NCBI GenBank assembly: GCA_965248445.1
Contig: CBDFJG010000004.1
Coordinates: 1,696,001 to 1,760,000 of the forward strand
Reading direction: 5' to 3'
Source of the DNA: Planctomycetota bacterium
Lineage (GTDB): Bacteria > Planctomycetota > JAJSAM01 > JAJVHW01
Length of the DNA: 64,000 bases
The notes beneath the pieces were generated by a model. It was not told where the DNA came from and did not search any database. It was given only the letters and a program-made list of their open reading frames with translations. A program made the translations under genes and the position numbers. Shown piece after piece: positions 52,941 to 61,304 of this stretch (position 1 is the stretch's first letter; the number at the start of each line of letters is the position of its first letter).

Positions 52941-53837
52941 TCAGTCGGTCCACTCGTCGCGGAAGATCTCGGCCCACTCACGCGCGATCCGCGCGGCGTG
53001 CGGGGCCTCTTCCTCAACGGTGTCGGCGAGGTCGATCAGGCCCTTCGCCCGCTTCGCGAGGTCCTTCGCCTTCAGCCGCTTCTTGCTCGCGGCCGGTCCG
53101 TGAACCCCGCCGACGAGCTTCGCGACGCGCCGCTGCGCGGCGAACTCGGCCTCGTGGTCTCCCTCGCGGAGCGCTTGCGAACGGGCAGCCGCGGTCTCAG
53201 CAGCCTCAGTACGCGCGAATCGCTCCGCGGCGCCGTCGAGGACCTCGGTGGCTTCGAGCACTCGGCCGGCTTCGACCAGCGTCTCCGCCCGTGCGAGCAT
53301 CCGACCGGCAATGACTGCCTGCGTCTCGGCATCGGCGCGTTCCAGATAGCGAAGTTGTTTCTCGAGGTCGCGCTTGCTGAGTCCGCCCGGTCGTCCTTCC
53401 CACTGCACCGTACCGTTGCCGTCGATCAGAACCGCGTGCGGCAGCATCTTGACCTCGTAGCCGGAGCCGCCGCCGAACGCCATCGGGAAGCCCACGCGCG
53501 GCGCACGGTGGACGAGGTAGCGCAGACCCGTCGCGCGCTCTTCGTGCGTCACACCGACGACGTTCAGTCCCTTGCGGCGCAAGGCCTCGTCGAGACGCGC
53601 GAGTTGCGGGAGCGCGCTCCGCGAGGCGGGACAGTCCGTCTTCCAGAACGCGAGGAGGACCATCTCGCCATCGAAGCCTGCGATCTCGGTGCGTCCGTCG
53701 CCGCGGGACCAGTCGCGGGCCGTCAACTCGGGAGCCGTCTCACCGACCAGCGTGTGCCGCGCGTCGGCACCGCTGGGGGTCGCGATGACCAGAGCAGCAG
53801 CCAGCACTGCGAGCAGACGGAGTGGAGTGATGCGCAT
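52941..53837 (-). CDS. Exported TlpA/redoxin-like thioredoxin-fold protein (CxxS) with helical C-terminus
   Basis: Signal peptide; VGETAPEL, LLAFWKTDCPAS, LPHAVLIDGNG. Confidence 0.85.
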   Translation of the reverse strand: MRITPLRLLAVLAAALVIATPSGADARHTLVGETAPELTARDWSRGDGRTEIAGFDGEMVLLAFWKTDCPASRSALPQLARLDEALRRKGLNVVGVTHEERATGLRYLVHRAPRVGFPMAFGGGSGYEVKMLPHAVLIDGNGTVQWEGRPGGLSKRDLEKQLRYLERADAETQAVIAGRMLARAETLVEAGRVLEATEVLDGAAERFARTEAAETAAARSQALREGDHEAEFAAQRRVAKLVGGVHGPAASKKRLKAKDLAKRAKGLIDLADTVEEEAPHAARIAREWAEIFRDEWTD

Positions 53838-53863: not shown

Positions 53864-56833
53864 CTAGGTAGGACGGTCCTGTTCGGGGGCTGGTTCCGGC
53901 GCCGCATCGGCGCCGGCGCCGTCTGCCACGACTTCGGGGGCGGGCGGCGCAGCCGCCGCCGCGCTCGCAGCCTCGACCGGAAGCTCAGCGGGCGTCTCGG
54001 GCTTGGGCTTCGTAGGCTTGGGCTTCGCAGCCGTCTTGCTCGGCTTCGGCTTCGTCTCTGCCTTCGTCTCCGGCTTCGTCTCCGCCTTTAGCTTCGGCTT
54101 CCTGGGCTTCGCAGCCCTCGCCTTCTTCGCGGGCTTGGCGGGCTTCGCGGCTTTCGGCGGAGGCGGCGGCTCGAGTCCGAGTTTCTCGCGCAACGCAACC
54201 AACTGCTGGTGGAACGGGTCGTGTTCGCGGGGCACGCCGCGGATCGCCGGTGTGCGGACAGAGGGCCGTCCTCCGCCGGGTCTGCCGCGATCGCCCCGTC
54301 GGCCGCGGTCCCCGCGTCCACCGGACCGCTGCCCTCCCGGACTCCGACCTCCCGGCCGGCCGCCGCGCCGGGGCTCGCGACCCGGACCACCCGGACCGCC
54401 GGAACGACCCCGCTCGCCGCCTTCTTGCCGCGGCGGCGGTCGCTCTGACTCGGGTGGCGGCGGCAACAGCGCCTTCACGCTCAGGGAGAGACGCCGCTTC
54501 TCCGGCTCGACGCCGACGACGCGCACGCGAACCGGGTCCCCGACCGACACCACGGCCGCCGGATCCTCCACGTAGCCATGCGCCAGTTGCGAGACGTGGA
54601 CCAGACCCTGCTCGCGCAACCCGACGTCCACGAACGCTCCGAAGTTCGACAGACCGGCGACGACGCCGTCGAGTTCCATGCCCTCCTGGACGTCGTTGAA
54701 CCGCCGCACGCCGGGGTTGTGCACGGGCGGCTTGAACGCACCACGGGGATCGCGGCCGCCGCGGGCAAGCCCGCGCAGCACCTGACGGACGCTGTCCACG
54801 GAGTGAACCTCGCCGGCGATCTTTGCGACGTCCACCGCTGACTCGAAGTCCTTGCGGCCGATGAGTTCGCGGATCTCCACGCCCACCTTGGTTGCGACCG
54901 CGCGGGCGATGGGCAACGCGGTCGGGTGCACGCCGCTCGCGTCGAGCGCCTCGCTGCCACCGGCCACGCGCATGAAGCCCGCGGCGCGCTGCCAGGCGTC
55001 GTCCGACACGCCCTCGACCGCGCGCACGTCCGTGCGGCAGGCGAACGCTCCGTGCGTGTTGCGGTGCGTCTCGATGGCCTGGGCGGACGGGCCGTCCAGT
55101 CCGGGCAGGCGCGCGAGGATGCGGGCGGGCACGGCGTTGACGTCGACGCCCACGGCGGCGAGGCACTCCGTCGCCACCTCGTCGAGGGAACGCCGCAACT
55201 CGCCCCGGTCCACGTCCCGCTGATTGGGGCCGAGCGGGAGGTCCGTCATGTCGTAGCGCGCCAACTCGAGCAGCGGATCCTGCACGCGACGGGCCAGCGC
55301 CACAGCCACACGAGCCGTGACCGGGAGTTCGGGCGCGGCCGCTTTGCCCGCATCCGTGCCCGCGTACCGCTCCGCCGCGGCCTCGTGCACCGGTGCGAGC
55401 ACCGCGCCCAGCTCCCGGTTCGCCGCGAGCACGTCCCCCACCCACGACCGGAGCGCCGTCGCACGGCCGCTGCCGGCGACGGCCACGAGCTTGGCACCGC
55501 TCTCGGCGATCACGTCAGTCAGGAGCTTCGCGGCCTTCTCCCGAGCTTCGCCCTCCTGCGAAGGCTTCATGGTCTCGGTACGGCCGGCGCGGCCCTCCGC
55601 GTCCACGGCGAGCATGCGTGCGGTCCCGGCGGCTCCCGGGACCACCGCAACCACCGCGACGCCGCCCGCAGGGGGTGCCATCAACCGCGCGCGAAGGCCG
55701 TCGGCAAAGCGCGACACGAGACCGCGTTCGAGCGACCGCTTGCGTTCGTTGACGAGTTCGTTCGACGCCTCGCGCACCATGCGGTCGAGCGCGGCTTCGG
55801 TTGCCGTCTTCAGCAGGTCCGCGTAAGGGTGCGCGACATCGACGCCGAGCGGCCCCTCGAGGATGGCACTCTTCGTCTCGTCGGGCGGCACGATGCGTAC
55901 GTCGAGCGCACCGCTCTTCTTGCCGCGCCGCACAAGCATCAGCCGGCGCGCGTCGACCTGGCCGAGCGGGATGCTGAGTGCCGCAACGGGTTGCAGATGC
56001 GGTTTCAATTCGCGCCCCGCACTCGCGGACGTCGTCAGCACGCCGCGCTTGCGCAACGCACGGCGAAGCTGCTGACGCGCGAGCGCGTTGTCCGCGATGG
56101 TCTGCGCGACGAGACCGGTCAGGCGCGTGTGCTGATCCGCCGCGGTCGGTGGCGCGCCGTCCGTGCCGCAGAACGGTGCAAGCAGGTCCTCGACGGTCGG
56201 AGTCTCGGCTCCGGGTGTCTCGGCTCCGGGTGTCTCGGCACCGGGTGTCTCGGCACCGGGTGTCTCGGTCGCCGGTGTCTCGGTCGCCGGTGTCTCGGTC
56301 GCGGGTGTCTCGGTCGCGGGTACCTCGGTCGCGGGTGTCTCGGTCGCGGGTACCTCGGTCGCGGGCACCTCGGTCGCGGGCGTCGCGGTCGCCGGTGTCG
56401 CGGCGACGATCTGTGCCGCGACCGCCGACATGGGGTCCTCCGCCGCCGCGCGGCCGCGGCGGGCGTCTCTGATCGGCCGCAGCAGATCTTCGAGCAGCGA
56501 GAGATCGCGCGTCTCGCGAACCTGCTTCGCCAGTGCGTCAGTCATCAGGCTCTCGGACTCGAGAGCGCGACGCGTGGTGCCGCGGCGGCGCGCAAGTTCG
56601 CGCTCTTCGCGCCAGGCGTGCCGCAGCTTGCGGAACGCGACTGCGTCCAAGTCGCCGAGCAGATCGCGGCGGAAGTGCCACAGGAAGGCCGGCTCCTCGC
56701 CCGCCTCGAGGGCAGCGAGCAGTGGTTCCATGCGATCAGCCACCGCCGTGAAGCGGCGTCTCATCACACCAAGGAGTTCGTCGTCTTCGTCCGCCAAGAG
56801 GGCCTCGTCGTCGGGGAGGGGGAGTCGGCGCAT
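53864..56833 (-). CDS. tex: Tex/YhgF-family transcription accessory protein with S1 domain (divergent)
   Basis: ARRVQDPLLEL, VGVDVN, LDASGVHP, RDPR, S1 domain NFGAFVDVG..GLVHVSQL; low-complexity tail. Confidence 0.88.
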   Translation of the reverse strand: MRRLPLPDDEALLADEDDELLGVMRRRFTAVADRMEPLLAALEAGEEPAFLWHFRRDLLGDLDAVAFRKLRHAWREERELARRRGTTRRALESESLMTDALAKQVRETRDLSLLEDLLRPIRDARRGRAAAEDPMSAVAAQIVAATPATATPATEVPATEVPATETPATEVPATETPATETPATETPATETPGAETPGAETPGAETPGAETPTVEDLLAPFCGTDGAPPTAADQHTRLTGLVAQTIADNALARQQLRRALRKRGVLTTSASAGRELKPHLQPVAALSIPLGQVDARRLMLVRRGKKSGALDVRIVPPDETKSAILEGPLGVDVAHPYADLLKTATEAALDRMVREASNELVNERKRSLERGLVSRFADGLRARLMAPPAGGVAVVAVVPGAAGTARMLAVDAEGRAGRTETMKPSQEGEAREKAAKLLTDVIAESGAKLVAVAGSGRATALRSWVGDVLAANRELGAVLAPVHEAAAERYAGTDAGKAAAPELPVTARVAVALARRVQDPLLELARYDMTDLPLGPNQRDVDRGELRRSLDEVATECLAAVGVDVNAVPARILARLPGLDGPSAQAIETHRNTHGAFACRTDVRAVEGVSDDAWQRAAGFMRVAGGSEALDASGVHPTALPIARAVATKVGVEIRELIGRKDFESAVDVAKIAGEVHSVDSVRQVLRGLARGGRDPRGAFKPPVHNPGVRRFNDVQEGMELDGVVAGLSNFGAFVDVGLREQGLVHVSQLAHGYVEDPAAVVSVGDPVRVRVVGVEPEKRRLSLSVKALLPPPPESERPPPRQEGGERGRSGGPGGPGREPRRGGRPGGRSPGGQRSGGRGDRGRRGDRGRPGGGRPSVRTPAIRGVPREHDPFHQQLVALREKLGLEPPPPPKAAKPAKPAKKARAAKPRKPKLKAETKPETKAETKPKPSKTAAKPKPTKPKPETPAELPVEAASAAAAAPPAPEVVADGAGADAAPEPAPEQDRPT
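56200..56403 (-). repeat. In-frame 15-bp VNTR in tex (PATE(T/V)/PGAET, about 13-14 units)
   Basis: Repeats of GGTGTCTCGG(T/C)nnn on the + strand. Confidence 0.95.
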
Positions 56834-56933
56834 CGTACGAGAAGCTGCCTGGGGGCGAAACGAAGCCGCCCCTGATTGCGCGCCGGCGGATACAAGGGAA
56901 CACCGCGATGTCGCACGACGTGGAGGTGGAACG

Positions 56934-59027
56934 GTGAGGCTTCGGCCGCGGGGGACCGGCGAGCAACTCGTCGGCTTCCTGAGGGCCGCCGTGATCGGTC
57001 TCTGCGGGGGGCTTGCGTCGCTGGGGTTCCGCAGCGCCACCGACTGGGTCCAAAAGCTGATCGGCCTGGGCGGGGAGGTGCTCGAGGGCGCGCGCGTGAA
57101 CATCCTCGCGGGGGCGCGCCACGTCGGCTCCGAGACGCCGTGGCTGATGGTGCTCATCCCGGCTGCCGGCGGCCTGGCCGCGGCGCTCGTCCACCGGTTC
57201 TGCGTCAGGGGGGAATCGGGGACGGGCCTCTCCGACGTGATGGAAGCCGTCTCGTTGCGCAGCGGCCCGATCCGCCTGCGGACCGCGCTCATGCGAGCGG
57301 CGTCGTCTCTCGGGATCATCGCAACCGGCGGCTCCGTCGGACGCGAGGGTCCGATCATCACGATCTCCGCCGCGGCATCTTCGACGCTGACGCGGCTCCT
57401 GCGTGCGCCGGCACGGGACCGTGGCCTCCTCCTCGGGTGTGGTGTCGCTGCCGGGTTCGCGGCGGCGTACGGCGCCCCCATCGCCGGCGCGCTGTTCGCC
57501 ATGGAGGTCGTTCTCGGGAACTTCGCGGTCGAGCTGTTCGCGCCCGTCGTCATCGCGTCGGTCACGAGCACGCTGTTCACGTGGCACCTGCGCGGCAACG
57601 AGCCGCTCTATCAGATGCCTCACTATCAGTTGGAGACGCTGGCGGAGCTCGTCCCGTACCTCTTCCTCGGTGTCGTTGCGGGGTTCGTGGCTGTCGGCCT
57701 GCAGCGCCTGCTCTCGCTCTCGGAGCGCTTCTTCCAGTCGTTACCGGGCGACCGCATCTGGAAGACGGTTGTGGGCGGCGCGCTCATCGGGGGAATCGCG
57801 CTCGCGTTTCCAGAGGTGTGCGGCAACGGCTACGAGGCCCTCAGCGAGTTGCTGAACGGTCGCGGCCCGCGATTCGAGGAGGCCGAGTGGGGACACCTTG
57901 TGCTCATCCTCGTCGCGCTGGCGCTCGTCAAGGCGTTCGGCACGGCGATCACCGTCGGATCCGGCGGTGCGGGCGGCGTGTTCACGCCGAGCCTGTTCAT
58001 CGGCGCCGGACTGGGCGGCGCGGTCGGCGTGCTGGTGAACCACGTCGCTCCGGATATTTCGGGCGACTACGGCGGGTATGCGCTCGTCGGCATGGGCTGT
58101 GTCGTCGCCGGCACCACGCGCGCACCGATCATGGCGATCGTGGTGATGTACGAACTGACCGGTGACTACGGCATCGTGGCGCCGCTGATGCTCGGGTGCG
58201 TCGCGTCGTCGGTCGTGGCCCGTGCGATCTACGAGCCCAGCATCTACACGGAAGAGCTGCGCGCGCGCGGGGTCACGCAGCCGGTCGGACTCGAGGAGAC
58301 CGTCCTCGTGACCACGCGTGTCGGCGACGTGATGCGCGAGGACCCCATGGTCTGGGTCGGCCGTTCCATGACGTACGCCGAGATCGTCCCGCTCGCAAGC
58401 GCCGCACGCGTCTCGGTCGTCTACGTGTGCGACGACCTGCGCAGACTGCGGGGGGCAATCCGCGTGCAGAGTCTGATCGACCTCGCTTCCTTCGGCGATC
58501 TCGGGCCCGGAATCGTGGCGGAGGACCTCGCAGCCCCGGTCGAGGCGGTGCTTCGTGGCGACCGGCTCTCCGACGTCTTCGACCAGTTCGGCCGCTCCGA
58601 CATCGACGAACGGCCAGTCGTGGATGACGAGCAGAGCCTCCACCTGAGGGGTGTCGTGACACGGCGGGACGTCATGGCAGCACTCCACCTGGAAGTGCTG
58701 AAGACGCAGAACCTGCGTGCCAAGTTTGTGCACCGGGACGACCCCGACGGCGGCGCGGACTACATCGAGCTGCCCGAGGGAGCCGAAGTGGCGCGCGTCC
58801 GGGTGCACCCGGATCACGTCGGGCGAACGCTGTTCGAGTGCCAGATCCGCACGAACCACCGCGTGACGGTGCTGAACGTACTGCGCAAGGACGTGGACGA
58901 CCACGAGATGCGAGTCGTGCCGGACAGTGAGTTCGCGCTCCGTGCGGGCGACTCACTCATCGTGATCGGCGACCTGGAGGCACTGGCGAAATGGCGGCGG
59001 GAGACGGAGGGCGGAGGCAACACGTGA
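56934..59027 (+). CDS. ClC chloride channel/antiporter with CBS pair and TrkA-C domain
   Basis: SD GGAGG before GTG; GREGP, LFAMEVV, GGVFTPSLFIG, SIYT; CBS domains; C-terminal RCK-C (VGRTL...LRAGDSLIVIG). Confidence 0.93.
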   Translation: MRLRPRGTGEQLVGFLRAAVIGLCGGLASLGFRSATDWVQKLIGLGGEVLEGARVNILAGARHVGSETPWLMVLIPAAGGLAAALVHRFCVRGESGTGLSDVMEAVSLRSGPIRLRTALMRAASSLGIIATGGSVGREGPIITISAAASSTLTRLLRAPARDRGLLLGCGVAAGFAAAYGAPIAGALFAMEVVLGNFAVELFAPVVIASVTSTLFTWHLRGNEPLYQMPHYQLETLAELVPYLFLGVVAGFVAVGLQRLLSLSERFFQSLPGDRIWKTVVGGALIGGIALAFPEVCGNGYEALSELLNGRGPRFEEAEWGHLVLILVALALVKAFGTAITVGSGGAGGVFTPSLFIGAGLGGAVGVLVNHVAPDISGDYGGYALVGMGCVVAGTTRAPIMAIVVMYELTGDYGIVAPLMLGCVASSVVARAIYEPSIYTEELRARGVTQPVGLEETVLVTTRVGDVMREDPMVWVGRSMTYAEIVPLASAARVSVVYVCDDLRRLRGAIRVQSLIDLASFGDLGPGIVAEDLAAPVEAVLRGDRLSDVFDQFGRSDIDERPVVDDEQSLHLRGVVTRRDVMAALHLEVLKTQNLRAKFVHRDDPDGGADYIELPEGAEVARVRVHPDHVGRTLFECQIRTNHRVTVLNVLRKDVDDHEMRVVPDSEFALRAGDSLIVIGDLEALAKWRRETEGGGNT

Positions 59028-59518: not shown

Positions 59519-59570
59519 AGGCGAGCTTCTCACTCCGCGCGCGCAACGGAGTCGCTCTCCAGATGCAGCG

Positions 59571-59710
59571 AGTAGCGAGGGCGCGCGGATTGCGGAGCAA
59601 GGCGCGTGACCGCAGCCCTCCGTAGCGGTCGGAGACCGCGTAGGAGGGAGACATGCGCCCGAAGCGTGGCCGAGGATCGCCGCGCGATCCGCAGGCGACG
59701 CGCGCGAGTG
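59571..59710 (-). repeat. Dispersed ~140-bp structured repeat, copy B
   Basis: Reverse complement aligns with 16245-16383 (shared TGTCTCCCTCCTACGCGG, GGAGGGCTGCG, GCGCCCTCGC). Confidence 0.85.
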
Positions 59711-59719
59711 CCCCCGCCC

Positions 59720-60640
59720 CTACTCGTCGTCGCTAGCCGGCTTCAGCTTCTTCAGCTGGTGCGCGAGCGCGTTGCCCGTGATCTTCCCGCCCAGGTCGCG
59801 CGGCTTCTCCTCACCGGGCAGGAGGACGAGCAGAGTCGGCACCCTCTCCACTCCCAGGTCCCGGGCGAGAAGTGCGTGATCCGCGTTCTGCAGGTCCAAA
59901 CGCAAGAGCGCCCATCCCTCGGCGGCCGTCGCCGCGCCCTTGGACCCGAGTGTCCCCTTCTCGAACTTACGCGACGCCTTGACCTCGAGCCGCGCCTTCT
60001 TGTTGTCGTCAGCGCCTTCGCTGCGCCCGACGTACACGAGGACCGGCTTGTCGTCTTCGCGCGCCGCGTCCAGTTGCTCGCACGAAACCGTCCGCTCTTC
60101 GCCCTCGCCCTCACCGACGACCGTCGCGCGTGCGAGCGGGACGCGCGTCTTCGGGTGATCGCGCTCGTACTTGTCCGCGGCGTCGTCGAGCCACTTCGAC
60201 AGCGGCGATGCCGCATACGCGTTCGGCGCGCGATCGATGACGGTTCCGTCCGGCTTCGCGACGAACACGAGGATCGACGGATCCTCGTTCTCGTTCCCCT
60301 GATCGTGGGTCCAGGGGATGATCTTCCCGTTCAGCCCGTCGTACAGCCACTCGACGGCCTCGAAGCGCGCGACGACCTTCTGGAAGTCCTCGTCCTTCTG
60401 CACCCGGTCACGCCAGGTGTCGCACGGTACTCATATCCTGGACTTCCACGCCGTCACGATGAGCAGCGGCTTGCCGCTCTTCTTCGCACTCTCCACGCCC
60501 TTGTCGAGGGTCGTGTGCCAGACCTTGTCGCCCGCGAAGACGTCCCCGGGCACGAACGCAGTGGCGGCAAGGAGCGCCAGGCCGCCCGCAGCAATGCGGA
60601 CCGCGGCGCTCAGGGTCGGGGCTCTCGCTCGCATGGCCAT
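59720..60640 (-). CDS. Exported two-domain thioredoxin-fold protein with in-frame UGA (putative selenocysteine, UxxC)
   Basis: ORF-track 60431..60670 and 59720..60403 share one frame; reading through TGA at 60431-60433 gives KPLLIVTAWKSRI-U-VP-C-DTW at the Trx active-site position. Start 60640 or 60634. Confidence 0.8.
60401..60419 (-). promoter_or_regulatory. Candidate bacterial SECIS hairpin
   Basis: mRNA CACCUGG-CGUGA-CCGGGUG begins 11 nt after the UGA; the apical loop has G at position 2 followed by U. Confidence 0.6.
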
Positions 60641-60779
60641 TCTCGGTCTCACAACATCTCTCCGTCTCACAGCGTCTCATTCCTGTCCGTGGGACACCGC
60701 ACGCCCCACAATTCGCTGGTCGCCGGGGGTACGACGCCCGCTCCATCGCGGGGGTTCCGCCCGCCGACGGCCCACGGCC

Positions 60780-61304
60780 ATGGTATCGACCCAGCGACTG
60801 TCCCTCCTGATCTCGCTGGTCGCGGCGTGCCTGACCGCAGCCTGTCAGACGCCGCGTCGCGTCTGCGGCACCGCGCCGGAGGGCGGGGGCCCGCCGGTCC
60901 TCACGACGCGCGAGGACGAGATCTGCGAGAGCGTGCGCTGGCGGGTGCTCGAACAGATGCGCGTCCGCGAGGAGTTCTCGTACGCCCACGCCGAGCGGTT
61001 GTTCACCGCGGCGGAGACGTGGAGCACCTCGACCACGCTCGAGGACCTGCGCCGGCGCGTCGCCGCCGTCGACGACGAGCAGGCTATGGCCACCACGATC
61101 GTGGACGCGGCCCGCCACGCGTGGGAGACGTCCAAGGCTCCGGTCAGCACCGGGTGCGAGACGGACGAAGCGTGCGTGGCGGAGGCGGCCGCGCACGGTG
61201 CGCGGGTCGCGCTACGACGCCGCTCGGCCTACCTCAAGATCACACCGGAGATGATCGAACAGGACCGCGACCTCGACCGCGACTGGGACTACCTGTTGCG
61301 CTGA
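60780..61304 (+). CDS. Predicted lipoprotein, unknown function
   Basis: Signal with lipobox LTAAC; four further Cys residues; divergent from the Trx-fold gene. Confidence 0.6.
   Translation: MVSTQRLSLLISLVAACLTAACQTPRRVCGTAPEGGGPPVLTTREDEICESVRWRVLEQMRVREEFSYAHAERLFTAAETWSTSTTLEDLRRRVAAVDDEQAMATTIVDAARHAWETSKAPVSTGCETDEACVAEAAAHGARVALRRRSAYLKITPEMIEQDRDLDRDWDYLLR

Follow-up and report, generated by a model that had tools for sequence, protein, structure and literature searches.

In the window (the whole stretch of 64,000 nucleotides of Planctomycetota DNA that was analysed), two open reading frames on the minus strand are separated by a single TGA codon. The question is whether this TGA ends a gene or codes for selenocysteine (Sec) in the active site of a longer protein and, in the latter case, what such a protein might do.

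A reading frame interrupted by one TGA

Three features define the predicted gene:

59720..60640, minus strand: predicted selenoprotein gene, 306 aa by UGA read-through, with an ATG at 60640 or 60634 and a TAG stop; its full-length Cys orthologs have 287-323 aa
60431..60433, minus strand: in-frame TGA, Sec70 at the nucleophile position of U-V-P-C; the codon is TGA in 44, TGC in 5 and TGT in 1 of 50 genes
60422..60424, minus strand: Cys73, the resolving Cys, invariant in 40/40 aligned homologs

The sequence-only reading had joined the two entries into one frame split at 60431-60433. Translation of the frame 60640-59720 (minus strand) through the TGA gives the 306 residues with this codon as the sole internal TGA. 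It is codon 70, found in the context TAWKSRI-U-VP-C-DTWR, and stands where a thioredoxin CxxC motif has its first Cys (U70-V-P-C73), as that reading had proposed.

A standard ORF caller outputs only the segment 59720-60403, the 227-aa C-terminal part of the protein, starting at a GTG (60403) that sits within the 3' arm of the hairpin described in the next section. The GenBank entry also consists only of a C-terminal 'hypothetical protein' fragment (e.g. MDA1195490.1, 227 aa). Splitting of the gene by standard pipelines, which had been anticipated, is real because 52 of 67 protein-database matches are C-terminal fragments (205-253 aa), found in an alignment search that covered proteins of 156-566 aa among 8000 candidates. 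Another 14 matches are full length (287-323 aa) and one has a different architecture; every name shown is 'hypothetical protein'. All 13 full-length database proteins examined carry Cys at the site.

Logan contigs from four runs of one sample have no differing letter, gap or joint across the gene, and neither TGC nor TGG replaces the TGA in them; this agreement is not independent, because the sample is probably the source sample of the assembly. The genome, which is 92% complete, encodes selA, selB, selD and tRNA-Sec (selC) with scores above curated cut-offs, the complete set of genes that the sequence-only reading had proposed to seek. Its selD itself contains one TGA. TGA is the commonest stop codon, terminating 1157 of 1800 long coding ORFs, and is therefore not reassigned genome-wide.

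The downstream hairpin and the homologous genes

60401..60419, minus strand: bacterial SECIS hairpin, 7-bp stem and CGUGA loop, 18 nt after the UGA

The hairpin CACCUGG-CGUGA-CCGGGUG begins after an 11-nt spacer (stem 60419-60413, loop CGUGA, stem 60407-60401), with precisely the sequence and position claimed for it. All seven pairs have a pairing probability of at least 0.98 and the energy is -9.8 kcal/mol. The bacterial SECIS model, in the available part of PMC13188914, has a loop of 3-9 nt with a G in its first two positions, a stem of 4-16 bp, a spacing of 16-37 nt and an energy of -7.5 kcal/mol or lower; the present hairpin falls within these bounds (5-nt loop, 7 bp, 18 nt, -9.8 kcal/mol). 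Taken alone, the region does not exceed its dinucleotide shuffles in stability (z of -0.92, -1.00 and +1.16). A single hairpin of this kind proves nothing, since shuffles are equally stable, and its support comes from comparison across the family.

A search for related loci with the single protein as query gave no match. The family was assembled from 77 loci, 75 of which were mapped (L101 and L103, unmapped, are omitted from the codon count) and 50 of which are non-redundant by 90 nt around the site, near-identical strains remaining among these 50; L031 was left aside as an ordinary, distantly related thioredoxin with CPPC. Counting this genome, homologs occur in 11/61 sampled relatives and in 25/401 genomes of the phylum, concentrated in two taxonomic families (6/7 in f1, 11/16 in f28). 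A further 25 GTDB loci bear titles of Planctomycetota or its subgroups, except one 'uncultured bacterium', and 22 metagenome loci were also found. Had another residue such as Trp stood at the site, the Sec assignment would have suffered; the 50 non-redundant genes have TGA (44) or a Cys codon (6) there, and none has TGG.

The hairpin overlaps the conserved DTWRxxV peptide and was therefore tested against protein constraint. The 44 Sec genes form 42 distinct rows; in these, 84.7% of the hairpin cells are paired, a value reached by none of 500 shuffles, and two-sided changes are found at 4/7 pairs, which one of 500 shuffles attained. Control structures slid along the alignment are 23-50% paired. 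The Arg codon that forms the loop is CGT in 33/42 Sec genes with Arg at this position, whereas elsewhere in these genes 35/581 Arg codons are CGT. When the register is fixed and a G[U/G] loop required, 32/44 Sec genes fit the hairpin, compared to a mean of 6.6 (maximum 13) in 300 synonymous resamplings; of the 12 that do not fit, two adopt a shifted register and some have poor folds. The same hairpin fits 2/6 Cys genes versus 1.4 expected. The codon statistics, and those on the hairpin generally, are overstated because related genes are not independent. The comparative sequence evidence nonetheless indicates that the SECIS is under selection across the family.

These data bear directly on an alternative in which the TGA truly terminates translation, results from an assembly error or a nonsense mutation, or is read as Trp, the locus then being two small genes or a pseudogene. 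The prevalence of TGA as the main stop codon of the genome, the downstream GTG at which the 227-aa ORF can begin and a homolog (L055) frameshifted downstream of the site would fit this explanation. It conflicts with the recurrence of this TGA in 44 genes from several families, each time at the one catalytic position and alternating only with Cys, as well as with the selection on the SECIS and the agreement of the contigs. In the predicted structure, a stop at this position would also cut the thioredoxin domain between its first strand and the active-site helix. An interrupted or erroneous gene is thus scarcely credible. UGA at codon 70 almost certainly codes for Sec, judging from the aligned genes, and the two apparent fragments are likely to be one exported two-domain thioredoxin-type enzyme.

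The alternation between Sec and Cys was followed in a quick LG+G4 tree whose 52 proteins had the site masked; 35 rows are Sec and 17 are Cys, 12 of the latter being database proteins known as protein sequence only, and the root lies on a long branch. The tree requires five Sec/Cys changes, at least three of them forced by well-supported branches. Repeated reversion from Sec to Cys is the simplest reading because the most divergent members (L077, L056 and L105) carry TGA. Four named genomes with Cys forms retain selA and tRNA-Sec, and on the same simplest reading of the sequences some lineages would have reverted to Cys yet kept the Sec machinery. Sec-to-Cys reversions with a remnant SECIS are described in the accessible text of PMC1794560. 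The present Cys orthologs resemble those revertants in being found in genomes that keep selA and tRNA-Sec and in having, for some, a hairpin; nothing differs in principle from what that text describes, except that the remnant SECIS is here not statistically supported (the 2/6 versus 1.4 given above).

Two further observations concern the family's composition. In L105 (genome G117) and in P0068, the Sec-bearing first domain is fused to a helical C-terminal domain and not to a second thioredoxin domain. Genome G005 has two copies (L025 and L032), a Cys form in a locus of the family-f1 type and a Sec form whose closest grouping is with sequences of family f28, which suggests transfer or binning contamination.

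Predicted architecture of the protein

Read through the UGA, the protein is divided as follows:

60533..60640, minus strand: predicted cleavable signal peptide, residues 1-36, a hydrophobic stretch with cleavage after VFA as judged by eye
60155..60532, minus strand: domain 1, residues 37-162, catalytic, of Thioredoxin_7 / DsbD-gamma / DsbH type from PF13899, the model and the fold search
60308..60343, minus strand: near-invariant family signature YDGLxGKIIxWT, residues 100-111
60275..60283, minus strand: D120-P121-S122 loop, in which the Pro takes up the cis-Pro position of thioredoxins, the cis geometry being deduced from position
59741..60145, minus strand: domain 2, a second thioredoxin fold without CxxC, with Pro268 kept at the cis-Pro position (Z 13.0 to 1vrs, model 130-264)
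59972..59983, minus strand: putative decayed active-site position of domain 2, V220-K-A-S223, from hhalign of domain 1 versus domain 2

A hydrophobic stretch precedes the mature domain in 48/50 homologs, compared to 0/100 off-frame and 3/270 mature windows. The signal peptide that had been proposed agrees with this hydrophobic N-terminus, its cleavable nature being a prediction. Inspection of the N-terminal signal region by eye revealed neither a twin-Arg motif nor a lipobox.

PF13899 (Thioredoxin_7) is the only Pfam family to pass its gathering threshold (40.7 bits versus 27, E 2.6e-10), and profile matches in the PDB are led by DsbD. The AlphaFold2 model built from a 40-sequence alignment (pLDDT 94) features two thioredoxin domains, with the CxxC at the start of helix 2. 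Domain 1 is closest to the C-terminal domain of a Bacteroides DsbD-type protein (PDB 3f9u; Z 14.7, 2.4 A, 121 residues), other matches being Chlamydia DsbH (2ju5; Z 12.7), AGR3 and DUF255. Non-redox or eukaryotic members (AGR3, UAS, DUF255) are also among the fold matches. Residues C73, W76, Y100, G105, W110 and P121 are invariant in the 40 aligned homologs. The family motif reads W-x4-U-x-[PS]-C-D-T-W, the dipeptide being x-P in 23/40 members and x-S in 15/40. An Asp precedes the Pro at the cis-Pro position in 37/40 homologs, which is unusual. The YDGLxGKIIxWT signature may form a substrate-binding surface.

The model and the fold search confirm that, as the sequence-only reading had recognised, the protein has a second thioredoxin-like domain lacking a Cys motif; the match of this domain to DsbD-gamma (1vrs) has an rmsd of 2.3 A over 113 residues. 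The alignment of the two domains by hhalign is weak (E 0.00039, probability 36%) and places S223 opposite C73. The position of S223 is a Cys in 8/40 homologs, with a full CxxC only in L028. We read domain 2, from these alignments, as a probable decayed duplicate of domain 1. The complete CxxC of domain 2 in L028 (genome G009) is CADC, a possible relic of an ancestor with two active sites.

How the protein relates to catalogued families is best seen by comparison. No NCBIfam 20.0 family reaches its cut-off for this protein, and across 40 members the best E-values lie between 1e-5 and 1e-6. NF041199 (Trx7/PDZ), the best NCBIfam match for 35/40 members, shares the N-terminal Thioredoxin_7-type domain; here the score is about 17 bits (16.9) against a cut-off of 300, the match is confined to residues 40-94, the motif is UxxC instead of CxxU and a PDZ domain is lacking. 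NF041382 and NF041383 (VPGUxxT) are likewise Trx7-type selenoproteins with a similar N-terminal strand-helix, but the score is 12.6 bits versus 350 and VPGU is replaced by the family motif.

The PF13098 UxxC 'Thiol:disulfide interchange protein' and the cd02966 and DsbG-like types of Table 1 in PMC13188914, as far as the available part goes, have in common with the present family the thioredoxin fold, a Sec nucleophile, an in-ORF SECIS and Cys homologs. In our protein PF13098 matches only the Cys-less domain 2, with 16.6 bits against a cut-off of 27. The same part of that 2026 catalogue holds many thioredoxin-fold UxxC selenoproteins, though not this architecture: PF13899 occurs 0 times, and a tandem with a dead second domain and YDGLxGK is not listed there.

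DsbD-gamma (1vrs), 3f9u and Chlamydia DsbH (2ju5) share the fold subclass of our protein (Z 12.7-14.7; 113-121 residues superposed with an rmsd of 2.3-3.0 A) and are extracytoplasmic, but their identity is only 14-20%, they have Cys in the place of Sec and they are single domains or fused to membrane domains. The protein described here is predicted to be a soluble tandem with Asp before the cis-Pro. It has neither the alpha nor the transmembrane domain of full membrane DsbD, which in this genome is a separate gene on contig C1.

A literature search on this tandem-thioredoxin family, with subscription journals outside its scope, found nothing. Together with the NCBIfam result and the database names, this bears out the earlier suspicion of an unannotated family. 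We regard it as an uncatalogued Planctomycetota family, set apart from the catalogued ones by description; in BSepDB (PMC13326102, available in part) some members may be listed with a generic name. Selenoproteins of the thioredoxin fold that are exported and carry UxxC form an already well-known kind, and the recoding mechanism is textbook knowledge. The accessible part of PMC4807772 reports that Planctomycetes use Sec and have a handful of selenoproteins.

Redox setting and possible function

The neighbourhood gives few clues. An upstream SoxA/TsdA-type cytochrome c gene recurs in 10/50 loci (38 of them with at least 1600 nt of upstream flank), all of family f1 where the genome could be placed. 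The ORF that faces the gene start, between it and the cytochrome c gene, is:

60779-61304, plus strand: divergent lipoprotein-like ORF with several Cys, one lipobox-like in our reading

This ORF has no match in Pfam or NCBIfam and is conserved beside the gene in 7 loci. The cytochrome c and Cys-containing lipoprotein neighbours pointed out in the sequence-only reading are present as described, but their conservation extends only to close relatives, so they say little about function; a functional coupling to the cytochrome c was for this reason not adopted. A second group, of 8-10 loci, is flanked by other genes, which we take from their motifs to be asparaginase-like and DUF151-like. No family-wide neighbour was found across the 50 loci. 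The gene is convergent with a MobB-like gene, a palindromic repeat element lying between them, and is probably transcribed alone. A sigma-70 promoter search at the locus found none, and a single terminator-like site on the plus strand was at chance level.

Other elements of the window were noted in passing. The GC-rich palindromic intergenic repeat at 59560-59710, presumably REP-like, has 37 genome matches of at least 100 nt among the 63 matches listed and a very high contig depth. At 52941-53837 (minus strand) an exported protein resembling ResA/TlpA is encoded, which has a C-x-x-S site and whose C-terminal domain is helical. The ORF 53864-57598 (minus strand) contains, in our reading, tandem five-residue ATETP-type repeats at about 56200-56350 and ends in an S1-like domain.

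The remainder of the genome is more informative (prefixes C1 to C4 denote its contigs). Scanning for TGA codons flanked on either side by coding-like sequence yielded 118 sites, and a SECIS-like hairpin accompanies 27 of them. Comparison of 22 hand-picked candidates to Pfam assigned 13 to the thioredoxin fold, 3 to CMD/AhpD, 1 to DUF3179 and 2 to other families, while 3 had no match. About 17 further UGA-interrupted candidate redox genes (L109-L130) result, namely the 13 of thioredoxin fold, DsbD included, the 3 AhpD/CMD and the DUF3179 gene, and many of them start signal-peptide-like. The genome thus appears rich in selenoproteins. Its DsbD is of particular interest:

C1:397668-399623, minus strand: the only DsbD of the genome, with a TGA (C1:397943) at the first Cys of the gamma-domain CxxC

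The codon at this site of DsbD (L126, L131-L147) is TGA in 13/17 genomes of the class and TGC in the other 4, all of family f3. The loop of the DsbD hairpin in this genome is without an early G.

Other candidates of the scan have less usual folds. In the gene of an FG-GAP repeat protein (C3:877035, plus strand, L116), a TGA lies in frame (DG-U-SCVW) and is accompanied by a strong SECIS-like hairpin; the fold would be an unusual one for a selenoprotein. Candidate exported selenoproteins with no family match, or a weak LRR match only, are found at C4:1210341 (plus strand, L122), C2:189625 (minus strand, L114), C4:671858 (L128) and C4:135754 (L130), with the respective motifs C-U-T, P-U-P, U-V-G-C and U-N-P-C.

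The suggestion of a periplasmic selenoenzyme finds support, at the level of prediction, in the complete Sec machinery, the TGA in 44/50 genes and the exported thioredoxin-type fold. We favour, with a probability of about 60%, a periplasmic disulfide reductase fed by DsbD. The best structural matches are domains from the reducing side of the periplasm (3f9u, Z 14.7; DsbD-gamma, Z 13.0; DsbH, Z 12.7), and DsbH is termed a reducing dithiol oxidoreductase in the available text of PMC5193440. U-V-P-C resembles the CVPC motif found in two reductases, TlpA and B. japonicum CcmG (PMC5909903, Table 4, seen in its accessible part). The likeness to DsbH and to CcmG-TlpA reductases is one of fold and dipeptide, drawn from sequence and model. 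Before the cis-Pro, CcmGs have Ala, Val or Leu and isomerases have Thr according to the same part of PMC5909903; the Asp found here differs from both and does not diagnose the functional subclass. From sequence, Asp-cis-Pro is atypical of reductases and isomerases alike.

In the favoured mechanism, SelB, bound to the SECIS within the ORF, would bring Sec-tRNA to codon 70, the sequence requirements for this step being present, and the signal peptide would route the protein through general secretion. By analogy with thioredoxin chemistry, the attack on a substrate disulfide would come from the selenolate of Sec70, and Cys73 would then resolve the intermediate, leaving a Se-S bond. The genome's only DsbD, whose gamma domain likewise has a UGA at its CxxC, would then re-reduce the protein. 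Non-catalytic domains of PDI select substrates. The decayed domain 2 and the YDGLxGK..W surface may do the same here.

A different use of the same parts would be that of a PDI-like a-b disulfide isomerase or chaperone, in which domain 1 shuffles disulfides, domain 2 binds unfolded substrate and DsbD keeps the enzyme reduced. Whole-chain Foldseek matches are the tandem-thioredoxin proteins QSOX1, ERp72, PDI and Eps1, and domain 2 is conserved despite being catalytically dead (mean top-residue frequency 0.57, versus 0.64 in domain 1). These matches have a TM of about 0.3 and an rmsd above 11 A, however, so the domain arrangement differs, and the family has neither the Tyr dipeptide nor the Thr-cis-Pro that are isomerase hallmarks in the consulted portion of PMC5909903. 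We consider an isomerase unlikely.

The near-invariant aromatic and acidic patch and the atypical Asp before the cis-Pro could also form an Asp-cis-Pro and YDGLxGK..W pocket for a specific substrate that is small or not a protein: a peroxide, sulfenylated thiols, or a compound of sulfur or a metal. Family-f1 loci do lie close to mono- and multi-haem cytochrome c genes, but such neighbours are found in only 10/50 loci, with a divergent gene between, and there is no match to peroxiredoxin or GPx families in Pfam and NCBIfam. Such a function is less probable again than that of an isomerase.

The genome also encodes VKOR, therefore an oxidative partner exists, and a DsbA-like oxidase that introduces disulfides and is re-oxidised by VKOR could be imagined. 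The DsbA active site is CPHC, whereas the dipeptide of the present motif is without His. DsbA-like UxxC selenoproteins are catalogued in the available part of PMC13188914; nevertheless the protein has no DsbA family match, and none is present among the 50 fold matches listed, which makes an oxidase very improbable. The DsbD-fed reductase remains our preferred reading.

The locus adds to the known selenoproteins an uncatalogued family in which Sec is the majority state (44/50 genes) and which annotation cuts in two. Its natural Sec and Cys orthologs in Sec-competent genomes are ready pairs for testing the benefit of selenium to an envelope oxidoreductase. Much of the envelope redox chemistry encoded here, DsbD included, seems to rely on Sec, a situation little described for Planctomycetota in the literature found (subscription journals being outside the search). 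More tentatively, and with less confidence than we give to the reductase role itself, the family might be a branch of an all-selenium periplasmic reducing relay in which Sec-DsbD feeds the dozen or so other Sec-containing thioredoxin-fold proteins, the dead domain 2 and the Asp-cis-Pro picking the substrate class. If this is true, the relay member would be a bacterial, selenium-based counterpart of the PDI-style modular oxidoreductases that annotation has missed.
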